Sequence record: OK018184
DNA length: 64,000 nucleotides
Strand: one strand, 5' to 3'
Origin: Shigella phage CT01
Shown: one piece after another, positions 3,459-63,037 of the stretch
How the letters are laid out: every line of letters starts with the position of its first letter
How positions within the stretch are numbered: the stretch's first letter is position 1
Notes under the pieces: model-generated
The model's database searches: none
Told to the model about the DNA's origin: nothing
Seen by the model: the letters and a program-made list of their open reading frames with translations, nothing else
Translations under genes and position numbers: made by a program

Positions 3459-3483
3459 AACAGTTTCCTCAAATTATAGGCTC

Positions 3484-3513
3484 ATAATATCTCAATCATG
3501 AGCCTATGTAAAC
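3484..3513 (-). promoter_or_regulatory. early-type sigma70 promoter (minus strand) within an inverted repeat
   Basis: minus strand reads GTTTACA, 17-nt spacer, TATTAT; overlaps a perfect 10-bp inverted repeat. Confidence 0.4.
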
Positions 3514-3831
3514 TTATTTCATATTATTAAAATATTCTTCTGCGATTTCGTCGTTATCATGGTAAACTTTAGAAGACAGTTTAACATAACCTTCAGCAGT
3601 GAACATGTTAATCACAACCTTTACAGTATACCACTGACCATCTTCATTACCCATTACTGCGTAAGTTTCAAACATCGGATGGTCAGGACCGATAACTTTA
3701 ATATCATTCACTGTACGACCGAAATCTTCTGAAACGCATTTCATAAAGAAGTTGAACAGTTCGCCGTAATTATCCATTTCATTCTCCAAGTTGTTTTTCT
3801 GTATCAGTAGTTGATAGTTGTATAGTACCAT
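3514..3831 (-). CDS. hypothetical protein (accessory)
   Basis: 105 aa ORF on the operon strand. Confidence 0.45.
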   Translation of the reverse strand: MVLYNYQLLIQKNNLENEMDNYGELFNFFMKCVSEDFGRTVNDIKVIGPDHPMFETYAVMGNEDGQWYTVKVVINMFTAEGYVKLSSKVYHDNDEIAEEYFNNMK

Positions 3832-4017
3832 GGAAGAACGGGGATGTAAACCGTTTTGTGAAAAAATTTTTAAAAAGTTTTAGGGAATTCTAGGGCAGGG
3901 ATGGGCAATTAAAAGGTAGGATAATATATTATAAAGGGTATAAACTAAATGATGCCTAGAGAGGTCTGGAAAGGCCTAGATACCAAAAAGCCCTATCATT
4001 TAGATAGGGATTTAAAA

Positions 4018-5293: not shown

Positions 5294-5369
5294 TGGTCGA
5301 GGCAGTAGGGATCGAACCTACGACCTAGGACTTAGAAGGTCCTTGCTCTTCCTTCTGAGCTATGCCTCG
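5294..5369 (-). tRNA. tRNA-Arg (anticodon UCU)
   Basis: manual cloverleaf: acceptor 5298-5304/5363-5369, T arm gtagg-gatcgaa-cctac, anticodon loop CUUCUAA, CCA encoded. Confidence 0.7.
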
Positions 5370-5373
5370 GATT

Positions 5374-5448
5374 TGGCGGACGTGATAGGATTCGAACCTA
5401 TAACCAATCGCTTAACAGGCGATCGCTCTGCCATTGAGCTACACATCC
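5374..5448 (-). tRNA. tRNA-Asn (anticodon GUU)
   Basis: manual cloverleaf: acceptor ggacgtg/cacatcc, T arm atagg-attcgaa-cctat, anticodon loop CUGUUAA, D stem gctc/gagc, CCA encoded. Confidence 0.7.
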
Positions 5449-5452
5449 AAAT

Positions 5453-5539
5453 TGGTGGGGAGTGGTGGAGTCGAACCACCCGAGTCGCAATGACAATGGA
5501 TTTACAGTCCACACCGCTACCTCTACGGGATAACTCCCC
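5453..5539 (-). tRNA. tRNA-Tyr (anticodon GUA), type II
   Basis: acceptor ggggagt/actcccc, T arm ggtgg-agtcgaa-ccacc, long variable arm, anticodon loop CUGUAAA. Confidence 0.6.
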
Positions 5540-5548
5540 AAATTAATT

Positions 5549-5623
5549 TGGTGGCCCTGGGTGGAATTGAACCACCATCTGGCGATTATGAGTCGCTTGC
5601 TTGAACCTTCCAGCTACAGGGCC
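5549..5623 (-). tRNA. tRNA with CAU anticodon (Ile2 or Met), copy 1
   Basis: acceptor ggccctg/cagggcc, T arm ggtgg-aattgaa-ccacc, anticodon loop CUCAUAA; position matches T4 tRNA-Ile. Confidence 0.6.
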
Positions 5624-5624
5624 T

Positions 5625-5700
5625 TGGTGCTGATTGACGGAATCGAACCGCCGACCTTCTCATTACAAGTGAGTTGCTCTACCTACTGAGCTAAATCAGC
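5625..5700 (-). tRNA. tRNA-Thr (UGU), copy 1
   Basis: acceptor gctgatt/aatcagc, anticodon loop CUUGUAA. Confidence 0.7.
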
Positions 5701-5705
5701 AAAAC

Positions 5706-5795
5706 TGGCGGAGGCGATAGGATTTGAACCTATGAGTCGCCGGAGCGACTGCCGGTTTTCAAGACCGGTGCATTAAACCACTCTGCCACGCCTCC
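5706..5795 (-). tRNA. tRNA-Ser (UGA), type II, copy 1
   Basis: acceptor ggaggcg/cgcctcc, long variable arm, anticodon loop CUUGAAA. Confidence 0.7.
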
Positions 5796-5797
5796 AG

Positions 5798-5871
5798 TCT
5801 CCATACAAGGATTTGAACCTTGGACCTCCTGATCCCAAATCAGGCGCTCTACCAAACTGAGCTACACGGAG
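5798..5871 (-). tRNA. tRNA-Pro (UGG), copy 1
   Basis: acceptor ctccata/cacggag (two G-U pairs), anticodon loop UUUGGGA; CCA not encoded. Confidence 0.6.
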
Positions 5872-5881
5872 TAAATTAAAT

Positions 5882-5955
<74 letters not shown>

Positions 5956-5960
5956 AAATT

Positions 5961-6047
5961 TGGTGCGAGAAGTGGGACTCGAACCCACAAGGAAATCATT
6001 CCGCAGCATTTTAAGTGCTGTGCCTTTACCAATTTGACCATTCTCGC
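5961..6047 (-). tRNA. tRNA-Leu (UAA), type II, copy 1
   Basis: acceptor gcgagaa/ttctcgc, T arm gtggg-actcgaa-cccac, long variable arm, anticodon loop CUUAAAA. Confidence 0.7.
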
Positions 6048-6048
6048 G

Positions 6049-6115
6049 CTGGGAATAAAGGACTCGAACCTTTGCATCCTGGAATCAAAATCCAGTGCCT
6101 TACCAATAACTCCCC
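6049..6115 (-). pseudogene. chimeric pseudo-tRNA at duplication junction (tRNA-Gln 3' body fused to tRNA-Tyr 5' end)
   Basis: Gln T arm and anticodon arm intact to 6106, then the sequence switches to the tRNA-Tyr 5' terminus; D-stem 5' strand lost and acceptor strands no longer pair. Confidence 0.6.
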
Positions 6116-6124
6116 AAATTAATT

Positions 6125-6199
6125 TGGTGGCCCTGGGTGGAATTGAACCACCATCTGGCGATTATGAGTCGCTTGCTTGAACCTTCCAGCTACAGGGCC
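6125..6199 (-). tRNA. tRNA with CAU anticodon (Ile2 or Met), copy 2
   Basis: identical to copy 1, offset +576. Confidence 0.6.
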
Positions 6200-6200
6200 T

Positions 6201-6276
6201 TGGTGCTGATTGACGGAATCGAACCGCCGACCTTCTCATTACAAGTGAGTTGCTCTACCTACTGAGCTAAATCAGC
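6201..6276 (-). tRNA. tRNA-Thr (UGU), copy 2
   Basis: identical to copy 1, offset +576. Confidence 0.7.
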
Positions 6277-6281
6277 AAAAC

Positions 6282-6371
6282 TGGCGGAGGCGATAGGATT
6301 TGAACCTATGAGTCGCCGGAGCGACTGCCGGTTTTCAAGACCGGTGCATTAAACCACTCTGCCACGCCTCC
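6282..6371 (-). tRNA. tRNA-Ser (UGA), copy 2
   Basis: identical to copy 1, offset +576. Confidence 0.7.
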
Positions 6372-6373
6372 AG

Positions 6374-6447
6374 TCTCCATACAAGGATTTGAACCTTGGA
6401 CCTCCTGATCCCAAATCAGGCGCTCTACCAAACTGAGCTACACGGAG
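6374..6447 (-). tRNA. tRNA-Pro (UGG), copy 2
   Basis: identical to copy 1, offset +576. Confidence 0.6.
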
Positions 6448-6457
6448 TAAATTAAAT

Positions 6458-6531
<74 letters not shown>

Positions 6532-6536
6532 AAATT

Positions 6537-6623
6537 TGGTGCGAGAAGTGGGACTCGAACCCACAAGGAAATCATTCCGCAGCATTTTAAGTGCTGTGCC
6601 TTTACCAATTTGACCATTCTCGC
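6537..6623 (-). tRNA. tRNA-Leu (UAA), copy 2
   Basis: identical to copy 1, offset +576. Confidence 0.7.
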
Positions 6624-6624
6624 G

Positions 6625-6697
6625 CTGGGAATAAAGGACTCGAACCTTTGCATCCTGGAATCAAAATCCAGTGCCTTACCAACTTGGCTAATTCCCA
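6625..6697 (-). tRNA. tRNA-Gln (UUG), the only intact copy
   Basis: acceptor tgggaat/attccca, T arm aaagg-actcgaa-ccttt, anticodon loop UUUUGAU. Confidence 0.7.
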
Positions 6698-7675: not shown

Positions 7676-7704
7676 TTTATTCTCCTCAGTAGTTGATAGG
7701 GTAA

Positions 7705-7734
7705 TAGTATCACAACTAAAACCCTATGTAAACA
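7705..7734 (-). promoter_or_regulatory. early-type sigma70 promoter (minus strand)
   Basis: minus strand reads GTTTACA, 17-nt spacer, TACTAT; embedded in a 20-bp motif repeated at 8094-8113. Confidence 0.4.
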
Positions 7735-7751
7735 ACTTTGTGAAATATTTA

Positions 7752-8039: not shown

Positions 8040-8069
8040 TTTATTTTCCTAATTAATTTTGATGAGATA

Positions 8070-8100
8070 ATAGTATCACTACCTCATCAACGTGTAAACA
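8070..8100 (-). promoter_or_regulatory. early-type sigma70 promoter (minus strand) upstream of ipI
   Basis: minus strand reads GTTTACA, 18-nt spacer, TACTAT; same 20-bp motif as at 7728-7747. Confidence 0.4.
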
Positions 8101-8111
8101 ACTTTGTGAAA

Positions 8112-8808
<697 letters not shown>

Positions 8809-16820: not shown

Positions 16821-19800
16821 CAGTAAAAGCACCTTCAGTCACTAGTCTCAGAATTTCCAAGTTATCCGCAAATCAGGTGCAAGTACGCTGGGATGACGTT
16901 GGTGCTAATTTCTACTATTTTGTAGAAATCGCTGAGACAAAAACAAACTCGGGGGAAAATCTCCCGAGCAATCAATACAGATGGATTAACTTAGGATATA
17001 CTGCAAATAACAGCTTCTTTTTTGATAATGCTGACCCATTGACATCATACGTTATTAGAGTAGCTACAGCTGCACAGGATTTTGAGCAGTCTGATTGGAT
17101 TTATACCGAAGAGTTTGAAACTTTTGCTACAAACGCTTATACATTTCAAAACATGATTGAAATGCAATTAGCTAATAAATTCATTCAGGAAAAATTTACT
17201 CTTAATAATTCTGACTATGTTAATTTTAATAATGACACTATAATGGCTGCATTGATGAATGAATCATTCCAGTTCAGCCCATCATATGCTGATGTTTCAT
17301 CAATAAGTAATTTTATTATTGGTGAAAATGAGTATCATGAAATACAAGGTTCTATTCAGCAAGTATGTAAGGATATTAATCGAGTTTATTTGATGGAATC
17401 AGAAGGGATTCTATATCTTTTTGAGCGTTATCAACCTGTAGTTAAAGTATCCAATGATAAAGGTCAAACCTGGAAAGCTGTAAAGCTCTTCAATGACCGT
17501 GTAGGATATCCTTTATCTAAGACTGTATATTACCAATCTGCGAGCACAACATACGTTCTAGGATACGACAAGATTTTCTATGGCCGCAAATCTACTGATG
17601 TTAGATGGTCAGCTGATGGTGTCAGATTTAGTTCGCAGGATATAACATTCGCTAAACTTGGTGATCAACTTCATTTGGGATTTGATGTTGAAATCTTTGG
17701 TACTTATGCTACATTACCTGCAAATGTGTATCGTATAGCTGAAGCTATTACTTGCACCGATGATTACATTTACGTTGTCGCCAGAGACAAAGTTAGATAC
17801 ATAAAAACGAGTAATGCACCTATAGATTCTGATCCATTATCTCCAACATATTCGGAAAGACTTTTTGAACCTGATACAATGACTATAACCGGAAATCCTA
17901 AAGCAGTATGCTATAAAATGGATTCTATCGGTGATAAAGTTTTTGCTCTTATTATTGGTGAAGTTGAAACATTAAATGCTAATCCTAGAACATCAAAAAT
18001 AATTGATTCTGATGATAAAGGAATATACGTTTTAAATCATGATACAAAAACGTGGAAAAGAGTTTTTGGCAACACTGAAGAAGAAAGAAGACGTATTCAA
18101 CCTGGATATGCGAATATGTCAACTGATGGTAAATTAGTTTCTCTGTCTTCGAGTAATTTTAAATTTTTAAGTGATAACATTGTTAATGACCCTGAAACTG
18201 CAGCGAAATATCAGTTAATCGGTGCTGTTAAATATGAATTTCCTCGCGAATGGTTAGCTGATAAGCATTATCATATGATGGCATTTATAGCAGATGAAAA
18301 ATCTGATTGGGAAACTTTTACGCCTCAACCGATGAAATATTATGCAGAACCATTCTTTAACTGGTCTAAAAAATCTAACACACGTTGTTGGATAAACAAC
18401 TCTGACAGAGCTGTAGTAGTTTATGCTGATTTAAAATACACTAAAGTTATAGAAAATATTCCGGAAACATCGCCAGATAGATTAGTTCATGAATACTGGG
18501 ATGATGGTGATTGCACGATAGTAATGCCAAATGTTAAATTCACGGGATTTAAAAAATATGCGTCTGGGATGCTTTTTTATAAATCTTCTGGTGAAATAAT
18601 TTCTTACTATGATTTTAACTATCGAGTGAGAGACACGGTTGAAATAATTTGGAAGCCAACTGGAATATTTTTAAAAGCATTTTTACAAAACCAAGAGCGT
18701 GAAACTCCTTGGTCACCAGAAGAAGAGCATGGATTAGCTGACCCTGATTTAAGACCATTGATTGGCACAATGATGCCTGATTCTTATTTACTACAAGATT
18801 CGAATTTTGAGGCATTTTGCGAAGCATATATTCAATATCTTTCTGATGGATATGGAACTCAGTATAACAATTTACGAAATTTAATTCGTAACAAATATCC
18901 ACGAGAAGAGCATGCATGGGAATATTTGTGGTCAGAGATATATAAAAGAAACATTTATTTAAATGCTGACAAACGTGATGCTGTTGCAAGATTTTTTGAA
19001 TCACGTAGCTATGATTTTTATTCTACTAAAGGAATTGAAGCATCATACAAATTTCTTTTTAAAGTTCTTTATAATGAAGAAGTTGAAATTGAAATTGAAT
19101 CTGGGGCTGGTACTGAATATGATATAATCATTCAATCTGATTCTTTGACTGAAGACTTAGTAGGACAAACGATTTATACAGCTACAGGAAGATGTAATGT
19201 TACTTATATAGAAAGAAGTTATTCTAACGGTAAATTGCAATGGACTGTAACTATTCATAATCTTTTGGGAAGATTAATTGCCGGTCAAGAAGTTAAAGCA
19301 GAAAGACTCCCTAGTTTTGAAGGCGAAATTATTCGCGGGGTTAAAGGAAAGGATTTGCTTCAAAATAATATAGACTATATTAATAGAAGTCGATCATATT
19401 ATGTAATGAAAATTAAATCCAATTTACCTTCTTCCCGCTGGAAATCTGACGTTATTCGTTTTGTTCATCCAGTAGGATTTGGATTTATAGCAATTACTCT
19501 TTTAACAATGTTTATTAATGTCGGTTTAACTCTTAAACATACAGAGACTATAATTAATAAATACAAAAACTACAAGTGGGATTCTGGATTGCCTACTGAA
19601 TATGCTGATAGAGTAGCTAAATTAACTCCAACTGGTGAAATTGAACATGATTCAGTAACAGGAGAAGCAATTTATGAACCTGGCCCAATGGCTGGTGTAA
19701 AATATCCTCTTCCTAATGACTATAATGCTGAAAATAATAATTCAATATTTCAAGGTCAATTGCCTTCTGAACGACGCAAGTTAATGAGTCCTCTATTTGA

Positions 19801-49656: not shown

Positions 49657-50831
49657 TGAGTATGTTGCAACGCCCTGGATATCCAAATCTCAGCGTTAAA
49701 TTATTTGATAGCTACGACGCTTGGAGTAATAATAGATTTGTTGAATTAGCTGCTACTATTACCACATTAACTATGCGGGATTCTCTTTATGGCCGAAATG
49801 AAGGAATGCTGCAGTTTTATGATTCTAAAAACATCCATACAAAAATGGATGGAAATGAAATAATTCAGATTTCTGTAGCTAATGCAAACGATATTAATAA
49901 TGTTAAAACAAGAATTTATGGATGTAAGCATTTTTCTGTGTCAGTAGATTCAAAGGGTGATAACATCATTGCTATTGAATTGGGAACTATTCATTCTATA
50001 GAAAATCTTAAATTTGGCAGACCGTTTTTCCCTGATGCAGGTGAATCTATAAAGGAAATGCTTGGCGTCATTTATCAAGACCGCACATTATTAACTCCAG
50101 CAATAAATGCTATAAATGCTTATGTTCCTGATATTCCGTGGACTAGTACATTTGAAAACTATTTGTCATATGTCAGAGAAGTTGCTCTAGCTGTAGGAAG
50201 TGACAAATTTGTATTTGTATGGCAAGACATCATGGGAGTTAACATGATGGACTATGATATGATGATAAATCAAGAACCGTATCCAATGATTGTCGGTGAG
50301 CCATCTTTAATAGGTCAATTCATCCAAGAATTAAAATATCCATTGGCATATGATTTCGTTTGGTTGACTAAATCGAATCCTCACAAACGTGACCCAATGA
50401 AAAACGCTACTATCTATGCTCATTCATTTTTAGATTCTTCATTGCCAATGATTACTACAGGAAAGGGCGAAAACTCTATTGTAGTGTCAAGGTCAGGTGC
50501 TTATTCTGAAATGACTTATAGGAATGGATATGAAGAAGCTATTCGTCTTCAAACTATGGCGCAATACGATGGCTATGCTAAATGTTCTACTGTCGGTAAT
50601 TTTAACTTGACACCTGGCGTTAAAATTATTTTTAATGATAGTAAAAACCAATTTAAAACAGAATTTTACGTTGATGAAGTCATCCATGAATTATCCAATA
50701 ATAATTCAGTAACTCATCTATATATGTTCACTAATGCAACGAAACTGGAAACAATAGACCCAGTTAAGGTTAAAAATGAATTTAAATCTGATACTACCAC
50801 TGAAGAAAGTAGTTCTTCCAATAAGCAATAA
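49656..50831 (+). CDS. 27: baseplate hub protein gp27
   Basis: 391 aa, T4 gp27 size and position. Confidence 0.8.
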
Positions 50832-51309
50832 AGAAGTTTCTATTCCTAAAATGGGTCTTAAACATTATAACATTTTAAAAGATGTTAAAGGTCCTGATGA
50901 AAATTTAAAACTTCTTATTGATTCTATTTGTCCGAATTTATCACCGGCAGAAGTTGATTTCGTTTCTATTCATTTATTGGAATTTAATGGAAAGATTAAA
51001 TCTCGTAAAGAAATAGATGGTTATACTTATGACATTAATGATGTTTATGTATGCCAAAGATTGGAATTTCAATACCAAGGAAATACATTTTATTTTAGAC
51101 CGCCTGGAAAATTTGAACAATTTTTAACTGTGAGCGATATGTTATCCAAATGCTTGCTTAAGGTCAATGATGAAGTTAAAGAAATTAATTTTCTTGAGAT
51201 GCCAGCATTCGTTTTAAAATGGGCAAATGATATTTTTACAACTTTAGCAATTCCTGGCCCTAATGGTCCAATAACCGGAATTGGCAATATTATTGGATTA
51301 TTTGAATGA
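50776..51309 (+). CDS. 28: baseplate hub distal subunit gp28
   Basis: 177 aa; overlaps the gp27 3' end. Confidence 0.7.
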
Positions 51310-55525: not shown

Positions 55526-57583
55526 CTACATTTTGAACTTTTTAGACATTTCGTTGATGTTAACCAAAGAAGCCAAGATTTGAGAAACTTCGTTTTCCTC
55601 TTCTTTTGATTCTTCTACAAGGAATTGATTAAATCCAGCCATTGGACGAACTTCACCAGTTTCCATCAGGTGGTCGCCATCATATACCGATTCTTCTAAT
55701 TGTTCAGAAGGAGGAACGATTGTGCCTTCGATTAGATACTTGTTATAAGCAGTTTCTTTCATCATGTACGTACTCACTTTATTAATCTTCAGTAAAATTC
55801 CACGTGGTAAAATAACTTCAGCTTCTGATGGAAATCCTGATAAATGACCCGGAACGATAACTTTGATTCGCTCAGCTCCTTTAATTACCATACCCACGCT
55901 AGTTTCAGCATCTTCATTCGCATAAGCAGAGTGACTGCCCATATGCATTAAATCTTCAGCATCAACTGAACCTTCTCCTTCACCAGAAAATACTGCACCA
56001 GAATCATCTAGAGCCATATAGTTTTTACCATACTCACCGAAGATATTTGGTTTAAGCGATGTGGATACGAAGTTCTTGAAATAGAACATTTTATTTTCAA
56101 TATTATGACGTAAAGTTTTAAAGGTAACTTCTTGTCCACGGTAAAGTGTAGTTCCTGGAGGAAGAACTGATCCTTTGGCAAAGGCAGAATCCATTGTCTC
56201 GATGTGTTTAATAGCTCGTTCCATGTATTCTTCACGTGTAGAATCTGGTTTACCTAAAAGGAACGAGTTCATTTCAACATATGAATCTGCACAATAATCT
56301 TCAATTACATCAGACTCAGCCTGAGTTAATCCTTTTGGAGTTACTTCAGTACTTGCATATTCATACGCTTGAGAAGCAGACTCATTAATCAATTTATAAA
56401 TGCCATTCATGACAAATTGAATAATAGCTACCTTTTCATCTGGCGTGGCTTTAGAACCTTTAACTAAATCATTGACAATTTTCTTAATAACATCAAAACT
56501 ATTAGAAATATTAATGTCAGCAAGATCGCTTAAAATTTTATCGGTTTTATAATCAAAAAATTCTTTATTCTTTAAATATTCTTGAGAACCTTGATATGTT
56601 ATATCGCTCTGTAACTTGATAGATGGATCACGTAAACGTGCATGAGCCAATGCAATATGATTTCGGAAGCTTTCTAGTTCATAATCACTAGATTTAAAAC
56701 GAGAAGCACTTCTCATACCACCGATAGCTCCTTTGCTGAAGTTTGAACCAACCTGAATAACGCCGGAGTTCATTGGTCCTTCTGCTTTATATACCGGAAC
56801 TTTAGATTCAAACTCTTGATATTTCTTAGCAGCGAAGCTATCACCCTGAAGTGAAGCATCGACAGTAGAGTATTGAGCTTGTGCTGCTAATCGACGACTA
56901 ATTTTAGTTTTCTGAATAACAGCTTGATCCGTGCGCTTATCATTTTCTAAAGCAATAGAAGCAGCAACAGCAACAGCTTTAGGAACAGCATTGCCTGTTT
57001 TAACATCTACATAAACATCACCAACCTTTGATTCAACTTTTGTGAATAACTCAGTTGAAATAGGAGGTACACCTGGAATGTCTTCTAAATTGGCATTTTT
57101 ACGGTAAACCATAATATATGCATATTTCTTATCATAGTCCCAGATTTCTTTTAAAAGAACATATCGACCTGCTCCTTTAGTACGTACTAAACGGTCGGCA
57201 ATAACCTGCATTTGACGAGCTGCGCCATTTGTTTTACTTTTTAGTACGCGGAATAAGCATGCGTCAATTTTATACTGTTTCATTGTTTGAAGAGCAGTAT
57301 CAAAAACGGCATTAATGACACCAATTGGATTTCCACCCAAGTTTTTAAGTTTAACTAATGATAGTTTCTCATTAACACCTATCATTACGATATGCATCAT
57401 TTTATCGCCTGGCTTAACATTTTTATTTGTATCACCACCAGAGGTGTATGTACAAAATCTAAATCCAGGAAGCACACTTTCTTCGCCTGCTTGAATAGCA
57501 AAAATTTGAGGTATTTTATGCTTCGGATTTAAGTTAACAACCGGCGCTTCGGCGCCGTCAAATAATTCTGTAATAAGTTCCAT
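55526..57583 (-). CDS. alt: Alt-type ADP-ribosyltransferase, paralog A
   Basis: 685 aa; N-terminal MELITELFD… with I-x-E site; C-terminal R (TLYRGQ), STS (FVSTSL) and E-x-E (SEAEVILPRG) motifs. Confidence 0.8.
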   Translation of the reverse strand: MELITELFDGAEAPVVNLNPKHKIPQIFAIQAGEESVLPGFRFCTYTSGGDTNKNVKPGDKMMHIVMIGVNEKLSLVKLKNLGGNPIGVINAVFDTALQTMKQYKIDACLFRVLKSKTNGAARQMQVIADRLVRTKGAGRYVLLKEIWDYDKKYAYIMVYRKNANLEDIPGVPPISTELFTKVESKVGDVYVDVKTGNAVPKAVAVAASIALENDKRTDQAVIQKTKISRRLAAQAQYSTVDASLQGDSFAAKKYQEFESKVPVYKAEGPMNSGVIQVGSNFSKGAIGGMRSASRFKSSDYELESFRNHIALAHARLRDPSIKLQSDITYQGSQEYLKNKEFFDYKTDKILSDLADINISNSFDVIKKIVNDLVKGSKATPDEKVAIIQFVMNGIYKLINESASQAYEYASTEVTPKGLTQAESDVIEDYCADSYVEMNSFLLGKPDSTREEYMERAIKHIETMDSAFAKGSVLPPGTTLYRGQEVTFKTLRHNIENKMFYFKNFVSTSLKPNIFGEYGKNYMALDDSGAVFSGEGEGSVDAEDLMHMGSHSAYANEDAETSVGMVIKGAERIKVIVPGHLSGFPSEAEVILPRGILLKINKVSTYMMKETAYNKYLIEGTIVPPSEQLEESVYDGDHLMETGEVRPMAGFNQFLVEESKEEENEVSQILASLVNINEMSKKFKM

Positions 57584-57586
57584 GAT

Positions 57587-59683
57587 TTATCCTTGAACGA
57601 ACTTGTAAGGCATGTTTGTAATATCTATGCAAGACGCAATAATTCCAAGAGATGATTCTACTTTCTGTTTAACGTTTGATGAAACAAATGATGCAAAGTC
57701 AACTCTGTCTTCTACTTCAATATCACCTGTCATTGCAACTACTTCGCCGGTTTCCATTAGACGGTCACCGTCATAAATGACTGATTCGGTGAGTTCTTCC
57801 GTAGTCATAACTTCAGCTTGAATGAGTTTTGTATTATTAGATGTTGTTCCGTCATTATTAGAAGCATCAGTTATTTTATTAACTTTGACCATCAATCCGC
57901 GCGGTAGAATAACTTCAGCTTCAGTTGCTATTCCGAGACTTCCTGGATATACAACATTAACTTTATGAGCTCCATCAATTGCCCATCCTATTTGAACTTT
58001 AACGTATTCAGGATTTTCTTTATACGCTCTTATTTCGTTTGGATTAATAGTTATTCCTTCTTCATTTTTATCAACTGTTAATTCATTACGAGCTTCTGGT
58101 TCTAAAAGACCGATACCAGCATGTGTAATTCCAAAACGTCCAAAAATGATAGGAGTTAAAGAAGTAGATACAAAATTTCTGAAATAGAACACTTTATTTT
58201 TAACTAGCGCTTCGTATATAGGAGCAGTCATACTTTGAGCACGATAAACTGTAATGCCTTCTGGTATACGGTCACCATTTTCAAAAGCTGAATCTAAATT
58301 ATTTATCGCAGATTCAATTTCTTTTTCACTCATTACATCATATCGTTCTGGATTGTAGCGGCCTAAAAGAAGATTATTGATGTCAGTATATCCTGATCCA
58401 CAATACTCTCTAATGCCGCGCTTTTGCGATGGAGTATATTTAGAACCATCACGTGCAATGGTAATATCAATCATTGGACCTGCACCAATTCCAGAAAAAC
58501 TATAAATCATTCGTTTGAGGAATTTAGTTTTTGCTGCGTTCCAGGAATTTTTAGTTATTTCTTCCCAGACTTCATCTGGCTGCCCTTTACGAGTTTTATT
58601 ATGTTTATCAAGCCAATTATCTTTATATTCTTCAAAGAATTGATTAACAGCTGCTGCGTATTTCTCTAAACATTTTATTGAAGTAGTTGGTTCATTTTTA
58701 ATCGCATTAAGAATTACATCTTTAATTTTTTCAGAAACTTCATTAACCTCACTTTTTGAAAAGAATTTATAGTCATAGTGAAGTTCATCTGCGGTTCCTT
58801 CGGCAATAATTTTTGCTGCCTTAGTTTTAGAAGCTAATGAATTAATTCCAAGCTTCATTTCTTCTGCTTCTGGAATTAAAGGAGCAGTAGCAGGTTTATT
58901 AAAATTAGCTGCGGTAGATTCATACTTCTGAAATAATTCACTTTCAAATCTAGAAGATTCTAATGATTGACTTTGTGCAATTGCTCTACGGGAAATTTTA
59001 ACTTTAACTATTACAGCTTGGTCAGAACGTTTATCATTTTCTTGCGCAATAGATGCTGCAATTGCTTCATTTTTAGTTACTTGAGCTCCAGTATCTTTAT
59101 TGATATAAACATCGCCGACCTTCGATTCAACTTTAGTAAAGAGCTCGGTACTAATTTCCGGAACTCCTGGAATGTCTTCTAGTGATACATTTTTGCGATG
59201 TATAAGAATATATGCATACTTTTTATCATAATCCCAGAGTTCCTTAAGAAGGACGTATCTGCCACCTGAACGACTACGGATAAGTCTATCAGCAATAAGT
59301 TGAATTTGTCGAGCTTGACCAGCAGTTTTAGACTTAAGAATACGAAGCATGCAGGCATCAATTTTATACTGACGCATCGTCTGCATTGCAACAGTAAAAA
59401 CTGAATTGATATAATTAATTGGGCTTGGACCGAGACCTTTCAATTTAGCAATTGAACCTTTAGCAGTTAATGTAAAAGGAACAATGTGCATCATTTTATC
59501 GCCCATCTTTAGATCACGGTTAGTATCACCTCCAGATGTATAGGTACATAAACGAAAGCCTGGTTGTTCAATTGCGTCATCAACATGAACTGAAAAAATT
59601 TGCGGTATTTTCTTCTTTGGATTTAAGTTTGTAATCGGAAGAGTAGTATCTTCGTCAAATAATTCTGTAATGAGTTCCATCAT
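57587..59683 (-). CDS. alt: Alt-type ADP-ribosyltransferase, paralog B
   Basis: 698 aa; same N-terminal ~230 aa family, diverged middle, C-terminal TVYRAQ / FVSTSL / TEAEVILPRG; 3-bp gap to paralog A. Confidence 0.8.
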   Translation of the reverse strand: MMELITELFDEDTTLPITNLNPKKKIPQIFSVHVDDAIEQPGFRLCTYTSGGDTNRDLKMGDKMMHIVPFTLTAKGSIAKLKGLGPSPINYINSVFTVAMQTMRQYKIDACMLRILKSKTAGQARQIQLIADRLIRSRSGGRYVLLKELWDYDKKYAYILIHRKNVSLEDIPGVPEISTELFTKVESKVGDVYINKDTGAQVTKNEAIAASIAQENDKRSDQAVIVKVKISRRAIAQSQSLESSRFESELFQKYESTAANFNKPATAPLIPEAEEMKLGINSLASKTKAAKIIAEGTADELHYDYKFFSKSEVNEVSEKIKDVILNAIKNEPTTSIKCLEKYAAAVNQFFEEYKDNWLDKHNKTRKGQPDEVWEEITKNSWNAAKTKFLKRMIYSFSGIGAGPMIDITIARDGSKYTPSQKRGIREYCGSGYTDINNLLLGRYNPERYDVMSEKEIESAINNLDSAFENGDRIPEGITVYRAQSMTAPIYEALVKNKVFYFRNFVSTSLTPIIFGRFGITHAGIGLLEPEARNELTVDKNEEGITINPNEIRAYKENPEYVKVQIGWAIDGAHKVNVVYPGSLGIATEAEVILPRGLMVKVNKITDASNNDGTTSNNTKLIQAEVMTTEELTESVIYDGDRLMETGEVVAMTGDIEVEDRVDFASFVSSNVKQKVESSLGIIASCIDITNMPYKFVQG

Positions 59684-59734: not shown

Positions 59735-59921
59735 AATAATCTAATGGTAAGAGAGTACGATATATTTCAAACTTTGGCCCTTTTTCATAGGCATCAAATG
59801 TTTCTGTAAATTTATTATAAGCATATGCATCTACAAATTCGAGAATGACTTGTGATACAGAAGTAGAAACATCTCCACCTTCTTTTTGAGCTATAACAAT
59901 TGTTTCTAAGTAAGCTTTCAT
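59733..59921 (-). CDS. small hypothetical protein
   Basis: 62 aa ORF; start overlaps the ligase stop. Confidence 0.4.
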   Translation of the reverse strand: MKAYLETIVIAQKEGGDVSTSVSQVILEFVDAYAYNKFTETFDAYEKGPKFEIYRTLLPLDY

Positions 59922-61378
59922 AGACCAGTTACCTCATGAAAATCACCAAATACATCCTCGAATGTATTAGCTTTAGTTTTATCTTCACGTAAACGAATCG
60001 CAATCGGAAGAAATAATTTAACGTAATCAGTGCGGCCATCAGATTTTAACCAACCGTTGCATTCGCACTCTAGAATTTTTCCAATATAATAATTTTGGTT
60101 TTCCATAATGCGAGTACGGTCAAGTTCATGTGATTTTACACCAGCTTTATCTTTTAAACCTGAACCAGCATTTACCTTAATTTTTCCACACTCTGATTCA
60201 AGAATAAATCCACCTGCTTTAGTAGGGTCTTTACGGTGAGGATAAATTCCTACAATTTTTAAATCAACATCAATTACTTCTTTAAATTTATAGAGATTTT
60301 TTGAACGAGCATTTTCCCACAATCCATCGGTATTTTTGAGAATAATACCTTCAAGACCTCGGTCAATATATTTTTTATAAATTACCTTAGCTTCATCTAG
60401 GTTATTTACTACCTGGTTTTCAATTAAAATTACTTTATCATATCCTGATGTCATTTGTTCTAGTTTAGAAAAACGTACATCATATTTTAAACGAAACGCC
60501 GGAAGACCGTATATTTCTACCAACGGGACATAATCCCAGACCTGAAACTTCATACATTTGGCTTCTTTTTCTGAAATAGTTCCCTTTAAAGATTTATTGG
60601 CGATTCCATTAGAAGCAGTACGAGATTCAGCTACTTCAGCAAACTCTTTAACTTTACTATTTTCAGGAGAGTCAAAAAGAAAATCTAGGCCTTCTGGCTC
60701 CTTTTCAACTTGCTCATGGTATACCAATTCGCCATCAATTAACACACCTTCTGGATGAATCTGGCGGGCTTCAGCAGTCATTTTGATTAGATCTTCCTTA
60801 AGAAGATCTAATCCTAGATATTCATTACCAGCTCGCGATAAAAGACGAACATCATCTAATTCATCGCCTCGGACTTCAGCAAAACACCGAGCTCCATCTG
60901 CTTTTAACTGCGCAAAAGCTGGAAACTTGATATTCTTACTAATGCCTTTTTCATCATAAGAACTTGCCAGCATTTGAGGTTGTTCAGGAATTAAACCTGG
61001 CCAAACTTTGTTTGCAATAGATACTGAAGCACCACATTCAAGGTCTCGCATCATAACTCGACGCAAAACTTCAACATCATCCTTTTTACCATCGGTGATA
61101 TATCCAGTTAATTCCTCAATTGCTGCATTGCCAGTTAATTTCCGAGTAGCTAACGTGAATTCAATGAAGTCAAGCATATCGGTAATAGTCAGCATTCCAA
61201 AACTCTGGGTAGCAATACCAGGTTTAGGCCATTTCTTGATATAATACTGTAACCCACGAGAATAAGTCAGACGATATACTCGTTTAAGCAATTCATTATC
61301 TTTATTCTTTTCAAGAATTGCTTGCTTCTGCTTAGTTGAACCAATAGATGCTATTTCATTTAGAATTTCAAGAATCAT
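59918..61378 (-). CDS. 30: ATP-dependent DNA ligase gp30
   Basis: 486 aa; adenylation motif KADGARC; T4 gp30 size. Confidence 0.9.
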   Translation of the reverse strand: MILEILNEIASIGSTKQKQAILEKNKDNELLKRVYRLTYSRGLQYYIKKWPKPGIATQSFGMLTITDMLDFIEFTLATRKLTGNAAIEELTGYITDGKKDDVEVLRRVMMRDLECGASVSIANKVWPGLIPEQPQMLASSYDEKGISKNIKFPAFAQLKADGARCFAEVRGDELDDVRLLSRAGNEYLGLDLLKEDLIKMTAEARQIHPEGVLIDGELVYHEQVEKEPEGLDFLFDSPENSKVKEFAEVAESRTASNGIANKSLKGTISEKEAKCMKFQVWDYVPLVEIYGLPAFRLKYDVRFSKLEQMTSGYDKVILIENQVVNNLDEAKVIYKKYIDRGLEGIILKNTDGLWENARSKNLYKFKEVIDVDLKIVGIYPHRKDPTKAGGFILESECGKIKVNAGSGLKDKAGVKSHELDRTRIMENQNYYIGKILECECNGWLKSDGRTDYVKLFLPIAIRLREDKTKANTFEDVFGDFHEVTGL

Positions 61379-61644
61379 TGCTCATCCTTCAAGGTTTGGT
61401 TTACAGCTCTATTATAAATCAATTCATCATTAAGCTCAGGCAAAGACTTATGATATGTAGTTCTAACTTTATTTCCTTGCATCCAGTGCTTGACGTAAAT
61501 GAAACCTTGCTCTACACATTTTTTAAAAATTCGTTCATCCTTTTGAGCACGGAACTCTGGATTACATCTAAAAAATTGATTTACGTGACCGTAATCACGT
61601 GTAGTATTACCTTCATTTTCATAAATAGTATGAACAACAAACAT
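61375..61644 (-). CDS. hypothetical protein (30.1 position)
   Basis: 89 aa ORF coupled to the ligase start. Confidence 0.45.
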   Translation of the reverse strand: MFVVHTIYENEGNTTRDYGHVNQFFRCNPEFRAQKDERIFKKCVEQGFIYVKHWMQGNKVRTTYHKSLPELNDELIYNRAVNQTLKDEQ

Positions 61645-62576
61645 TAGAATGCTCCTTGAAAAATATTATCACCACTAGTAGGTCTATTATACAAATACTC
61701 TATGCCACCAGGTTTAATATAGTTCCATGTCTGAAACGGATGTGTCTGATATGGATGATATAGATGATTATTAGGTCTATTATACAAATACTCTATGCCA
61801 CCAGGTTTAATATAGTTCCATGTCTGAAACGGATGTGTCTGATATGGATGATATAGATGATTATAAGGATTTAATCCAGGCGTTCTCCAGGTAGTGTTCC
61901 AAGGAAAAGAATCGTTTTTAACCATCTTCTCAATTAAATCTTTTATAGCTTTTTCACTATCAAAACTTTCTTTATTTTCCTTCGGCGAAAAAAGCTTATT
62001 TTCTACATCATTCCATGTATAAACTCGCTGCGCAGTTTTTGGAATATTGTCACGCTCTCCTCGAGCCATCCAATAAACAGGAACATTTAATATTTCACTC
62101 GCATGATCGCAGTGATGAGCGAGATCGTCAATATAACAAATTACGTTATATTTCTCTTTTGCCTTTTTGAACAGCTCTTCTTTTGAAGAATCATGACCAC
62201 ACATCATTACTTCCGAGAAAGCACCAGGAAAAAGAGCATTCAAATTAAATTGACGATTCAACAGAGCGTCAATAGAATCACCCAATGCTGTAACAGCTAC
62301 AAAATTATAATCTTCTTTTAATTTGTTAATTACACACAGGGCATCTTTATACGGAGACAAGTAACGAATAAAATCTGAACGATTGTATTTTTCAATTAAC
62401 TTGACGCCAAGTTCTTCGTCACAATTAAAGAGTTTACCCGGAGAAATAAATTTCTCATCTTGGATCATTTTTAAAATATGTTCTAATGGAAGATTATATT
62501 TCTGAGCAAAATAAGGAAGGCCTGATTGCCAGCTTAAACATACTCCATCAATATCAGTTAAAATAGTTGGCTTCAT
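61644..62576 (-). CDS. HAD-superfamily nucleotidase-like protein with duplicated C-terminal motif
   Basis: 310 aa; HAD motif I DIDGV near the N-terminus, YIDDLAHH later; C-terminus has a 31-aa Tyr/His/Pro-rich unit twice. Confidence 0.5.
   Translation of the reverse strand: MKPTILTDIDGVCLSWQSGLPYFAQKYNLPLEHILKMIQDEKFISPGKLFNCDEELGVKLIEKYNRSDFIRYLSPYKDALCVINKLKEDYNFVAVTALGDSIDALLNRQFNLNALFPGAFSEVMMCGHDSSKEELFKKAKEKYNVICYIDDLAHHCDHASEILNVPVYWMARGERDNIPKTAQRVYTWNDVENKLFSPKENKESFDSEKAIKDLIEKMVKNDSFPWNTTWRTPGLNPYNHLYHPYQTHPFQTWNYIKPGGIEYLYNRPNNHLYHPYQTHPFQTWNYIKPGGIEYLYNRPTSGDNIFQGAF
61681..61866. repeat. 93-bp in-frame tandem duplication inside the HAD-like gene
   Basis: 61681-61773 and 61774-61866 are near-identical direct repeats (ggtctattatacaaatactctatgccaccagg…). 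Confidence 0.8.
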
Positions 62577-63037
62577 AGAGAGTCTCTTAATAGGTTTAAC
62601 ACATCAATAAATTCAGCTTCGGTTAGTATTGTATCATCTTTTGTTAGACCACTAGCCATGCTGTGCTTCAAAACTTTTCCTTTCGAGGCTTGTAATGCAT
62701 CACGAAAGCCCCTGTTTTGGATTGCTGCTTCAAAATATGCATTTGTGTATAATTCTTTCCATGCTGGAGAGTATCTTGAAAATGGAACTCCAAGCCAAAA
62801 GAGGGTCCCACGGTCCTGAGCTCTAGCATAAGACCTTCCAGCTTGTTGGGCGGCAAGCCCGGACATCCCAAATATACGTCTTTGCTGTTCAACATTTTTC
62901 ACCTTACATCCTTGGAGGAATCCTTCGAGACCTCCAAATTGGATACCATCCATAACGAAAGGCCATTGAGCGAAATTGCTTAATGCACATGATGGCCATC
63001 TAAAATTGCTTCTTATCTCTAGCTCAGACATTTTCAA
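62573..63037 (-). CDS. NADAR (YbiA-like) domain protein
   Basis: 154 aa; signature …LSNFAQWPFVMDGIQFGGLEGFLQGCK… resembles the YbiA/NADAR core …FSNFAAWPIKVDGKTWPTSEHYFQAQK…. Confidence 0.5.
   Translation of the reverse strand: MKMSELEIRSNFRWPSCALSNFAQWPFVMDGIQFGGLEGFLQGCKVKNVEQQRRIFGMSGLAAQQAGRSYARAQDRGTLFWLGVPFSRYSPAWKELYTNAYFEAAIQNRGFRDALQASKGKVLKHSMASGLTKDDTILTEAEFIDVLNLLRDSL

Follow-up and report, generated by a model that had tools for sequence, protein, structure and literature searches.

The genome of Shigella phage CT01 (accession OK018184.1; PMC13602300) contains, within the 64,000-nucleotide stretch analysed here and referred to below as the window, a minus-strand gene in which the same 93 bp are read twice in succession near the end of the coding sequence. 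This raises the question of which protein has been lengthened in this way, what the doubled segment adds to it, and whether the duplication arose in the phage or in the assembly of its genome.

Gene 30.2 and the geometry of its repeat

The gene is the known, conserved and uncharacterised T4 gene 30.2. Its product is 87% identical to the 278-aa T4 product annotated between 30.3 and 30.1, and the order of genes at the locus, 30.3 – 30.2 – 30.1 – 30 (DNA ligase), is that of the T4 block. The genes concerned are as follows.

61644–62576, minus strand: coding sequence of the T4 gene 30.2 ortholog, 310 aa (open reading frame; exact match to UDY80593.1; phrog_420, E = 5e-93)
62573–63037, minus strand: gene 30.3, identical with AdfN, the upstream neighbour (PF08010, E = 4e-70)
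61375–61644, minus strand: gene 30.1 (DUF3045), the downstream neighbour (PF11243, E = 6e-63)
59918–61378, minus strand: gene 30, ATP-dependent DNA ligase (open reading frame; annotation of orthologous regions)

The start of 30.1 overlaps the stop of 30.2 (TAATG). The two genes also meet in P0015, a 302-aa protein from a Logan assembly that combines a 30.2-like HAD protein with a PF11243 domain (DUF3045, that is, gp30.1) and that either is a natural fusion of 30.2 with 30.1 or results from read-through where stop and start overlap in TAATG. As for the upstream neighbour, AdfN (gp30.3) is a NADAR DNA ADP-ribosylglycohydrolase which counters DarTG1, and an additional T-even protein has been suggested as a possible requirement for its full activity (PMC11825919). 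No paper on the function of gp30.2 or gene 30.2 was found, and PADLOC returned nothing for the three genes 30.1, 30.2 and 30.3. Some of the source annotations already carry the HAD/nucleotidase-like prediction for 30.2; modestly useful by-products of the present analysis are a description of gp30.2 at the level of its motifs, given below (HAD core plus disordered tail with a conserved C-terminal motif), and the adjacency of its gene to that of the anti-DarTG factor AdfN. Elsewhere on the minus strand, 55526–57583 and 57587–59683 are occupied by a pair of neighbouring paralogues that encode alt-like ADP-ribosyltransferases of 685 and 698 aa; the two genes share stretches of 72–73% DNA identity at a spacing of ~2095 bp, which indicates an old tandem gene duplication.

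The repeat within 30.2 is a head-to-tail direct repeat at 61679–61868 (TRF: period 93, 2.0 copies, score 373), and a repeat scan identified it as the sole such array in that part of the window. When the sequence is compared with itself at an offset of 93, an unbroken run of 93 matches extends over 61679–61771 and is bounded by mismatches at 61678 and 61772, so that the exact units are 61679–61771 and 61772–61864, identical at 93 of 93 positions. Counted from the N-terminus of the protein, they are:

61772–61864, minus strand: repeat copy 1, N-terminal-proximal, approximately residues 239–269 (93/93 identity to 61679–61771; no second copy in phage DCP2)
61679–61771, minus strand: repeat copy 2, approximately residues 270–300 (the alignment with DCP2 puts the 93-bp insertion here)

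The sequence-only reading had reported near-identical units at 61681–61773 and 61774–61866. The repeat itself is present and even perfect, while those units lie 2 nt off; the single mismatch noted then (61772 T versus 61865 A) is a consequence of their having been placed 2 nt rightward. The repeat is in frame and comprises 31 codons, so that the segment NHLYHPYQTHPFQTWNYIKPGGIEYLYNRP occurs twice in the protein, at approximately residues 239–269 and 270–300, and the final ten residues, SGDNIFQGAF, lie outside it. Composition (Tyr 16%, Pro 13%, Asn 13%, His 10%) and translation both bear out the initial description of a Tyr/His/Pro-rich 31-aa unit encoded twice near the C-terminus of a minus-strand gene. 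At the junction, 61771/61772, GATGATTAT abuts TAGGTCTATT; no perfect microhomology was found there, the flanks sharing only an imperfect TA..AGG similarity.

That the repeat might be a duplicated regulatory or RNA element was considered and rejected. No Rfam match was found in the repeat region at E ≤ 1, the number of promoter-like sites (9 versus 6.2 ± 2.4) shows no enrichment and none of them is doubled, and terminator-like sites are absent from the region. The one strong minus-strand promoter-like site (61889–61860) spans the right boundary of the repeat, which is unique, and is present once.

The HAD domain and the C-terminal tail

The 310-aa protein consists of a confidently modelled domain and a C-terminal extension, predicted to be disordered, in which the repeat is located. 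The relevant features are listed below.

61992–62576, minus strand: residues 1–195, HAD-superfamily phosphatase domain with a helical C1-type cap (D8-x-D10, T96, K132, D150-D151)
61647–61904, minus strand: residues 225–310, C-terminal tail, predicted to be disordered (pLDDT, composition)
61773–61802, minus strand: residues 259–268, extra internal copy of the motif GGIEYLYNRP (motif found in 16 homologue clusters)
61680–61709, minus strand: residues 290–299, copy of GGIEYLYNRP at the native position, followed by T300 and the conserved SGDNIFQGAF

Structure prediction models residues 1–195 as a capped HAD-superfamily phosphatase with a Rossmannoid alpha/beta core, in which the four motifs of the superfamily occupy their expected places. 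Motif I, D8-I-D10-G-V12 (the DIDGV of residues 8–12), follows strand 4–7, and both of its aspartates, D8 and D10, are invariant across sets of 70 and 73 homologues; motif II, T96, closes strand 91–96; motif III, the invariant K132, stands just ahead of helix 133–142; and motif IV, D150-D151, closes strand 145–150. Motifs II and IV are each retained by at least 90% of homologues. The long helical insertion that separates motif I from motif II (residues ~16–86) constitutes a C1-type cap. In the T2 record (MH751506.1), residue 11 of 30.2 is changed from Gly to Glu, giving DIDEV for DIDGV in motif I. At least 90% of homologues share this glycine, and the T2 sequence may represent an inactive allele or a sequencing error.

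Assignment below the level of the superfamily is less straightforward. The curated models gave no Pfam match to the 310-aa protein at E ≤ 1 except noise, and no NCBIfam match. PF00702 is reached at E ≤ 0.01 by 10 of 70 homologues; PF06941 is matched weakly by five of the 70 (best E = 1.2e-4), the 310-aa protein itself giving no match to this model. A phmmer search against PDB sequences returned noise only, and the sole match in a PDB profile search was mouse cdN (2jao), a weak one at E = 0.1; in this alignment the invariant W16 pairs with the Phe of DMDGVLADF. In the structure search, 3bwv, 2jao and 2i7d were among the best matches, with many other HAD-IA enzymes lying within 0.4 Z; the fold comparison was also run against BFVD. 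Of the earlier proposal that the DIDGV motif suggests an HAD-type 5′-nucleotidase, the superfamily is thus borne out by fold and motifs, while the nucleotidase label is only plausible, given structural ties and no family model.

Fold and motifs support the view that gp30.2 is, at the level of the superfamily, a capped HAD phosphomonoesterase, and a deoxyribonucleotidase-like assignment is plausible. In the predicted enzyme, Asp8 would serve as the nucleophile and Asp10 as the acid/base, with Thr96, Lys132 and, for Mg2+, Asp150/151 completing the site. A cap in HAD enzymes goes with small-molecule rather than polynucleotide substrates. The predicted substrate is probably a small nucleotide-like phosphate ester.

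The tail has a pLDDT of 37–54 in the duplicated form. Charged residues make up 9% of it, as compared with 29% of the domain, and Tyr, Pro, Asn and Thr are abundant. That a tail with a single copy of the unit would be folded was considered and rejected, since the pLDDT of the tail in the single-copy protein P0001 is still 37–60. Among 100 homologue clusters the tail is absent in 43 and otherwise highly variable. Despite this variability, a motif of the form G-I-E-Y-L-x-x-Q/R-P-T recurs at a distance of 6–10 residues from the C-terminal end in 16 homologue clusters from other genera, whose disordered tails are otherwise unrelated. A different subgroup of homologues carries L-R/K-A-Y-Y at the same position of the tail. 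The duplicated 31 aa contain the conserved near-C-terminal motif, in the form GIEYLYNRPT. In Tequatroviruses GDNIFQGAF comes after it, and the conserved GIEYLYNRPT...GDNIFQGAF is probably a short linear docking motif for a partner.

The two-copy protein retains the native N-terminal 268 and C-terminal 42 residues and gains an internal copy of the motif. Other Tequatroviruses show small indels (278–287 aa) in a PY/HLYH micro-repeat just upstream of the unit, and the segment therefore appears to tolerate changes in length. Neither the HAD domain nor the 42 residues of the native C-terminus is altered, so that the protein is expected to function as before, whichever origin of the duplication proves correct.

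Origin of the duplication

The nearest relative at this locus is Escherichia phage DCP2, which over 60.8–63.5 kb differs from CT01 by one SNP (61448) and by having exactly 93 bp less. Both CT01 copies equal the single DCP2 copy, and there has accordingly been zero divergence since the duplication. No one-piece match to an 80-nt junction query was found in 50,697 phage records, 649 of which contain the locus (OK018184.1 is not among them); the best 40 of the 649 span 1299–1314 bp of a 1401-bp query, mostly 1308 bp and thus shorter by precisely one 93-bp unit, which corresponds to one copy. Neither IMG/VR nor metagenome contigs nor GTDB genomes contain the exact 32-nt junction, and an exact look-up among ~15 billion proteins placed the 310-aa sequence on one contig only. 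All sampled orthologues (T4, T2, T6, DCP2, BP32, SP1, LH2 and ECML-134) have one unit, and the representative of the 1386-member cluster has 279 aa. The duplication is thus private to OK018184.1 and of zero age. It had been described as recent, in agreement with copies of zero divergence and with a closest relative that is single-copy and otherwise identical bar one SNP. The accompanying suggestion that it may be length-polymorphic between isolates finds no counterpart in these data: the second-copy junction was seen in none of the 649 related phages nor in any contig set searched, and the copy number in the sampled orthologues is always one.

The duplication may be an untrimmed assembly overlap, a reading to which we assign a probability of roughly one half. 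Genomes of T4-like phages are circularly permuted, and de Bruijn assemblers accordingly yield contigs whose ends overlap by k; when such ends are joined and the contig is rotated without trimming, the record is left with an internal duplication that is exact and has the odd length k. In the present case, a 'circular' contig with an end overlap of k = 93 would have been joined untrimmed, leaving a tandem duplication inside the record, and rotation of the contig to the T4 convention would have brought the 93-bp doubled stretch to an internal position. The record appears to be T4-collinear, position 1 of the window mapping to ~63.4–65.2 kb of rIIA-first records with the strand as in T4, and this start and strand indicate that the assembly was re-oriented by hand. 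The run of 93 matches is exact and without junction microhomology, as expected for a join made in silico, and 93 is odd, like de Bruijn k values, which favours an artefact. Exact copies, occurrence in a single record, lack of junction homology and an odd, k-compatible length are all found here; these properties are necessary for such an artefact and insufficient to establish it. To our knowledge, 93 is not a default k of common assemblers, which weighs against an artefact, as does the good base-level quality of the record, in which all essential structural genes have T4 lengths.

The case is complicated by another perfect tandem duplication, likewise private, elsewhere in OK018184.1.

5530–6681, minus strand: 576-bp unit present twice (5530–6105 identical to 6106–6681; 577 successive positions match at offset 576)

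It lies in the minus-strand tRNA cluster that spans 5294–6697 and doubles six tRNA genes, those for Met(CAU), Thr, Ser, Pro, Gly and Leu, bringing the total to 16. At its junction, 6105/6106, CCTTACCAAT abuts AACTCCCC, so that 10 nt from the start of tRNA-Tyr run directly into the final 58 nt of tRNA-Gln; this junction is absent from all phage records searched and from IMG/VR. A single circularisation join can explain only one of the two duplications, which leaves one or both to be accounted for in another way. Moreover, both lie in 'soft' places, the disordered tail of a non-essential gene and a tRNA cluster, which fits selection acting on real events rather than random joins. The same part of the window also contains a four-member family of 54-nt direct repeats (3473–3526, 3811–3864, 7693–7746 and 8059–8112), which on the minus strand read GTTTACA, ~17 nt and then TACTAT, and which resemble T4 early promoters on either side of the tRNA region.

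As a control for untrimmed joins, ~0.4 Mb of other T4-like genomes, at least 17 in number, was scanned for perfect tandem duplications of at least 30 bp. The single example detected is a 55-bp duplication in IMGVR_UViG_2974742932_000001 (169,650 bp), at 19680–19789 of locus L016 (the same as L028, from 18566). It frameshifts the essential baseplate gene 28 into ORFs of 59 and 103 aa; deletion of one copy restores a 177-aa gp28 ORF that matches window positions 50776–51249 with 100% identity across 158 aa. As the 55-bp copy breaks an essential gene, an untrimmed-overlap artefact is proven for that genome; 55 is a default k of SPAdes.

Alternatively, the CT01 duplication may be genuine and very recent, having arisen in the phage stock when two non-homologous sites at a distance of 93 bp underwent illegitimate recombination or replication slippage, and having been fixed by a plaque-purification bottleneck. 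We regard this as a serious possibility, though a somewhat doubtful one. The duplication is in frame and affects a segment predicted to be disordered in both forms, in a part of the tail that varies slightly among Tequatroviruses (278–287 aa). The 576-bp repeat also stands in a harmless place, which would be unlikely for random join errors, whereas the proven artefact hit an essential gene; the record is otherwise clean; and assemblers usually collapse repeats rather than expand them. If real, the duplication would be neutral and tolerated, being in frame within a disordered tail and leaving the HAD domain and C-terminus intact. On the other hand, it is private and of zero age, unseen in the 649 related records and the contig collections, and it shows no junction microhomology. 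That two unselected perfect duplications should have been fixed together in one isolate is a priori improbable, and, in the small sample available, join artefacts are the commoner class (1 versus 0 in ~0.4 Mb). Recombination of the T4 type should in addition delete a real tandem duplication by unequal crossing-over and thereby render it unstable. On balance, an artefact is about as likely as a real event, or slightly likelier.

It is tempting to speculate that the duplication is not only real but also adaptive, in that a doubled motif or a longer linker alters the docking of the phosphatase and has been selected in a Shigella host. We consider this very improbable. The unit does hold the only tail motif that is conserved across genera (16 clusters), and it is the tail that evolves rapidly in this protein. 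Against this, the doubled form is absent from all other phages searched, including Tequatroviruses that infect Shigella; its zero divergence gives no sign of persistence; and the unchanged native C-terminal copy makes any effect speculative. Equally far-fetched is the more specific version in which the motif would be a docking peptide that tethers a nucleotide-type phosphatase to a phage complex, with selection acting on the valency or reach of the tether. If docking were true, AdfN (gp30.3) or the replication/dNTP-synthesis machinery would be candidate partners. Finally, an ancient repeat architecture with two units as the normal state of the family, for which only the two units of this one record speak, is ruled out by copies that are identical in DNA, by single-unit orthologues and a 279-aa representative of 1386 members, by the unrelated or missing tails of distant homologues and by the comparison with DCP2.

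Whether it is an untrimmed overlap or a real event, the 93-bp duplication is a singleton in a known gene and biologically ordinary. Its practical significance lies elsewhere. With perfect tandem duplications of 93 bp and 576 bp, both private to it, OK018184.1 should be flagged for quality. Join artefacts also inflate apparent protein diversity; the 310-aa form is clustered under a 220-aa representative.

Comparison with known systems

Among characterised enzymes, the phage T5 dNMP phosphatase Dmp has motifs I (DLDGT) and IV (IDD) that align in register with those of gp30.2. The similarity between the two proteins is, however, not significant (hhalign E = 0.029, probability 1.7%), and a common family is not demonstrable; Dmp itself has no Pfam match. 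The phosphatase domain of T4 Pnkp (1ltq, 5uj0) aligns with gp30.2 over 124–129 residues, that is, over the core alone; in contrast to T4 Pnkp, gp30.2 possesses the helical cap insertion at residues ~16–86 and no kinase domain. With respect to the 5′(3′)-deoxyribonucleotidases (cdN/mdN, NT5C, PF06941; 2jao, 2i7d, 3bwv), the sequence signal of gp30.2 is below every curated threshold, and their structural scores tie with those of phosphoglycolate phosphatases, beta-phosphoglucomutase-like proteins and dehalogenases. Furthermore, the cdN/mdN enzymes are without the disordered aromatic tail that is present in gp30.2.

As regards the duplication, the artefact in IMGVR_UViG_2974742932_000001 resembles the CT01 repeat in being exact, of odd length, private and devoid of junction homology. 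The two differ in that the 55-bp artefact destroys an essential gene, whereas the 93-bp repeat is in frame and harmless, has a length that is not a default k and is accompanied by the 576-bp duplication.

The closest counterpart of the CT01 protein is the uncharacterised 278-aa product of T4 gene 30.2 (PHROG 420), which it resembles in position, in the 87% identity over its full length, in the HAD motifs, in the tail and in the motif at its end. The difference resides in the 31-aa segment, which occurs once in the T4 protein and in every other sampled ortholog, and twice in that of CT01.
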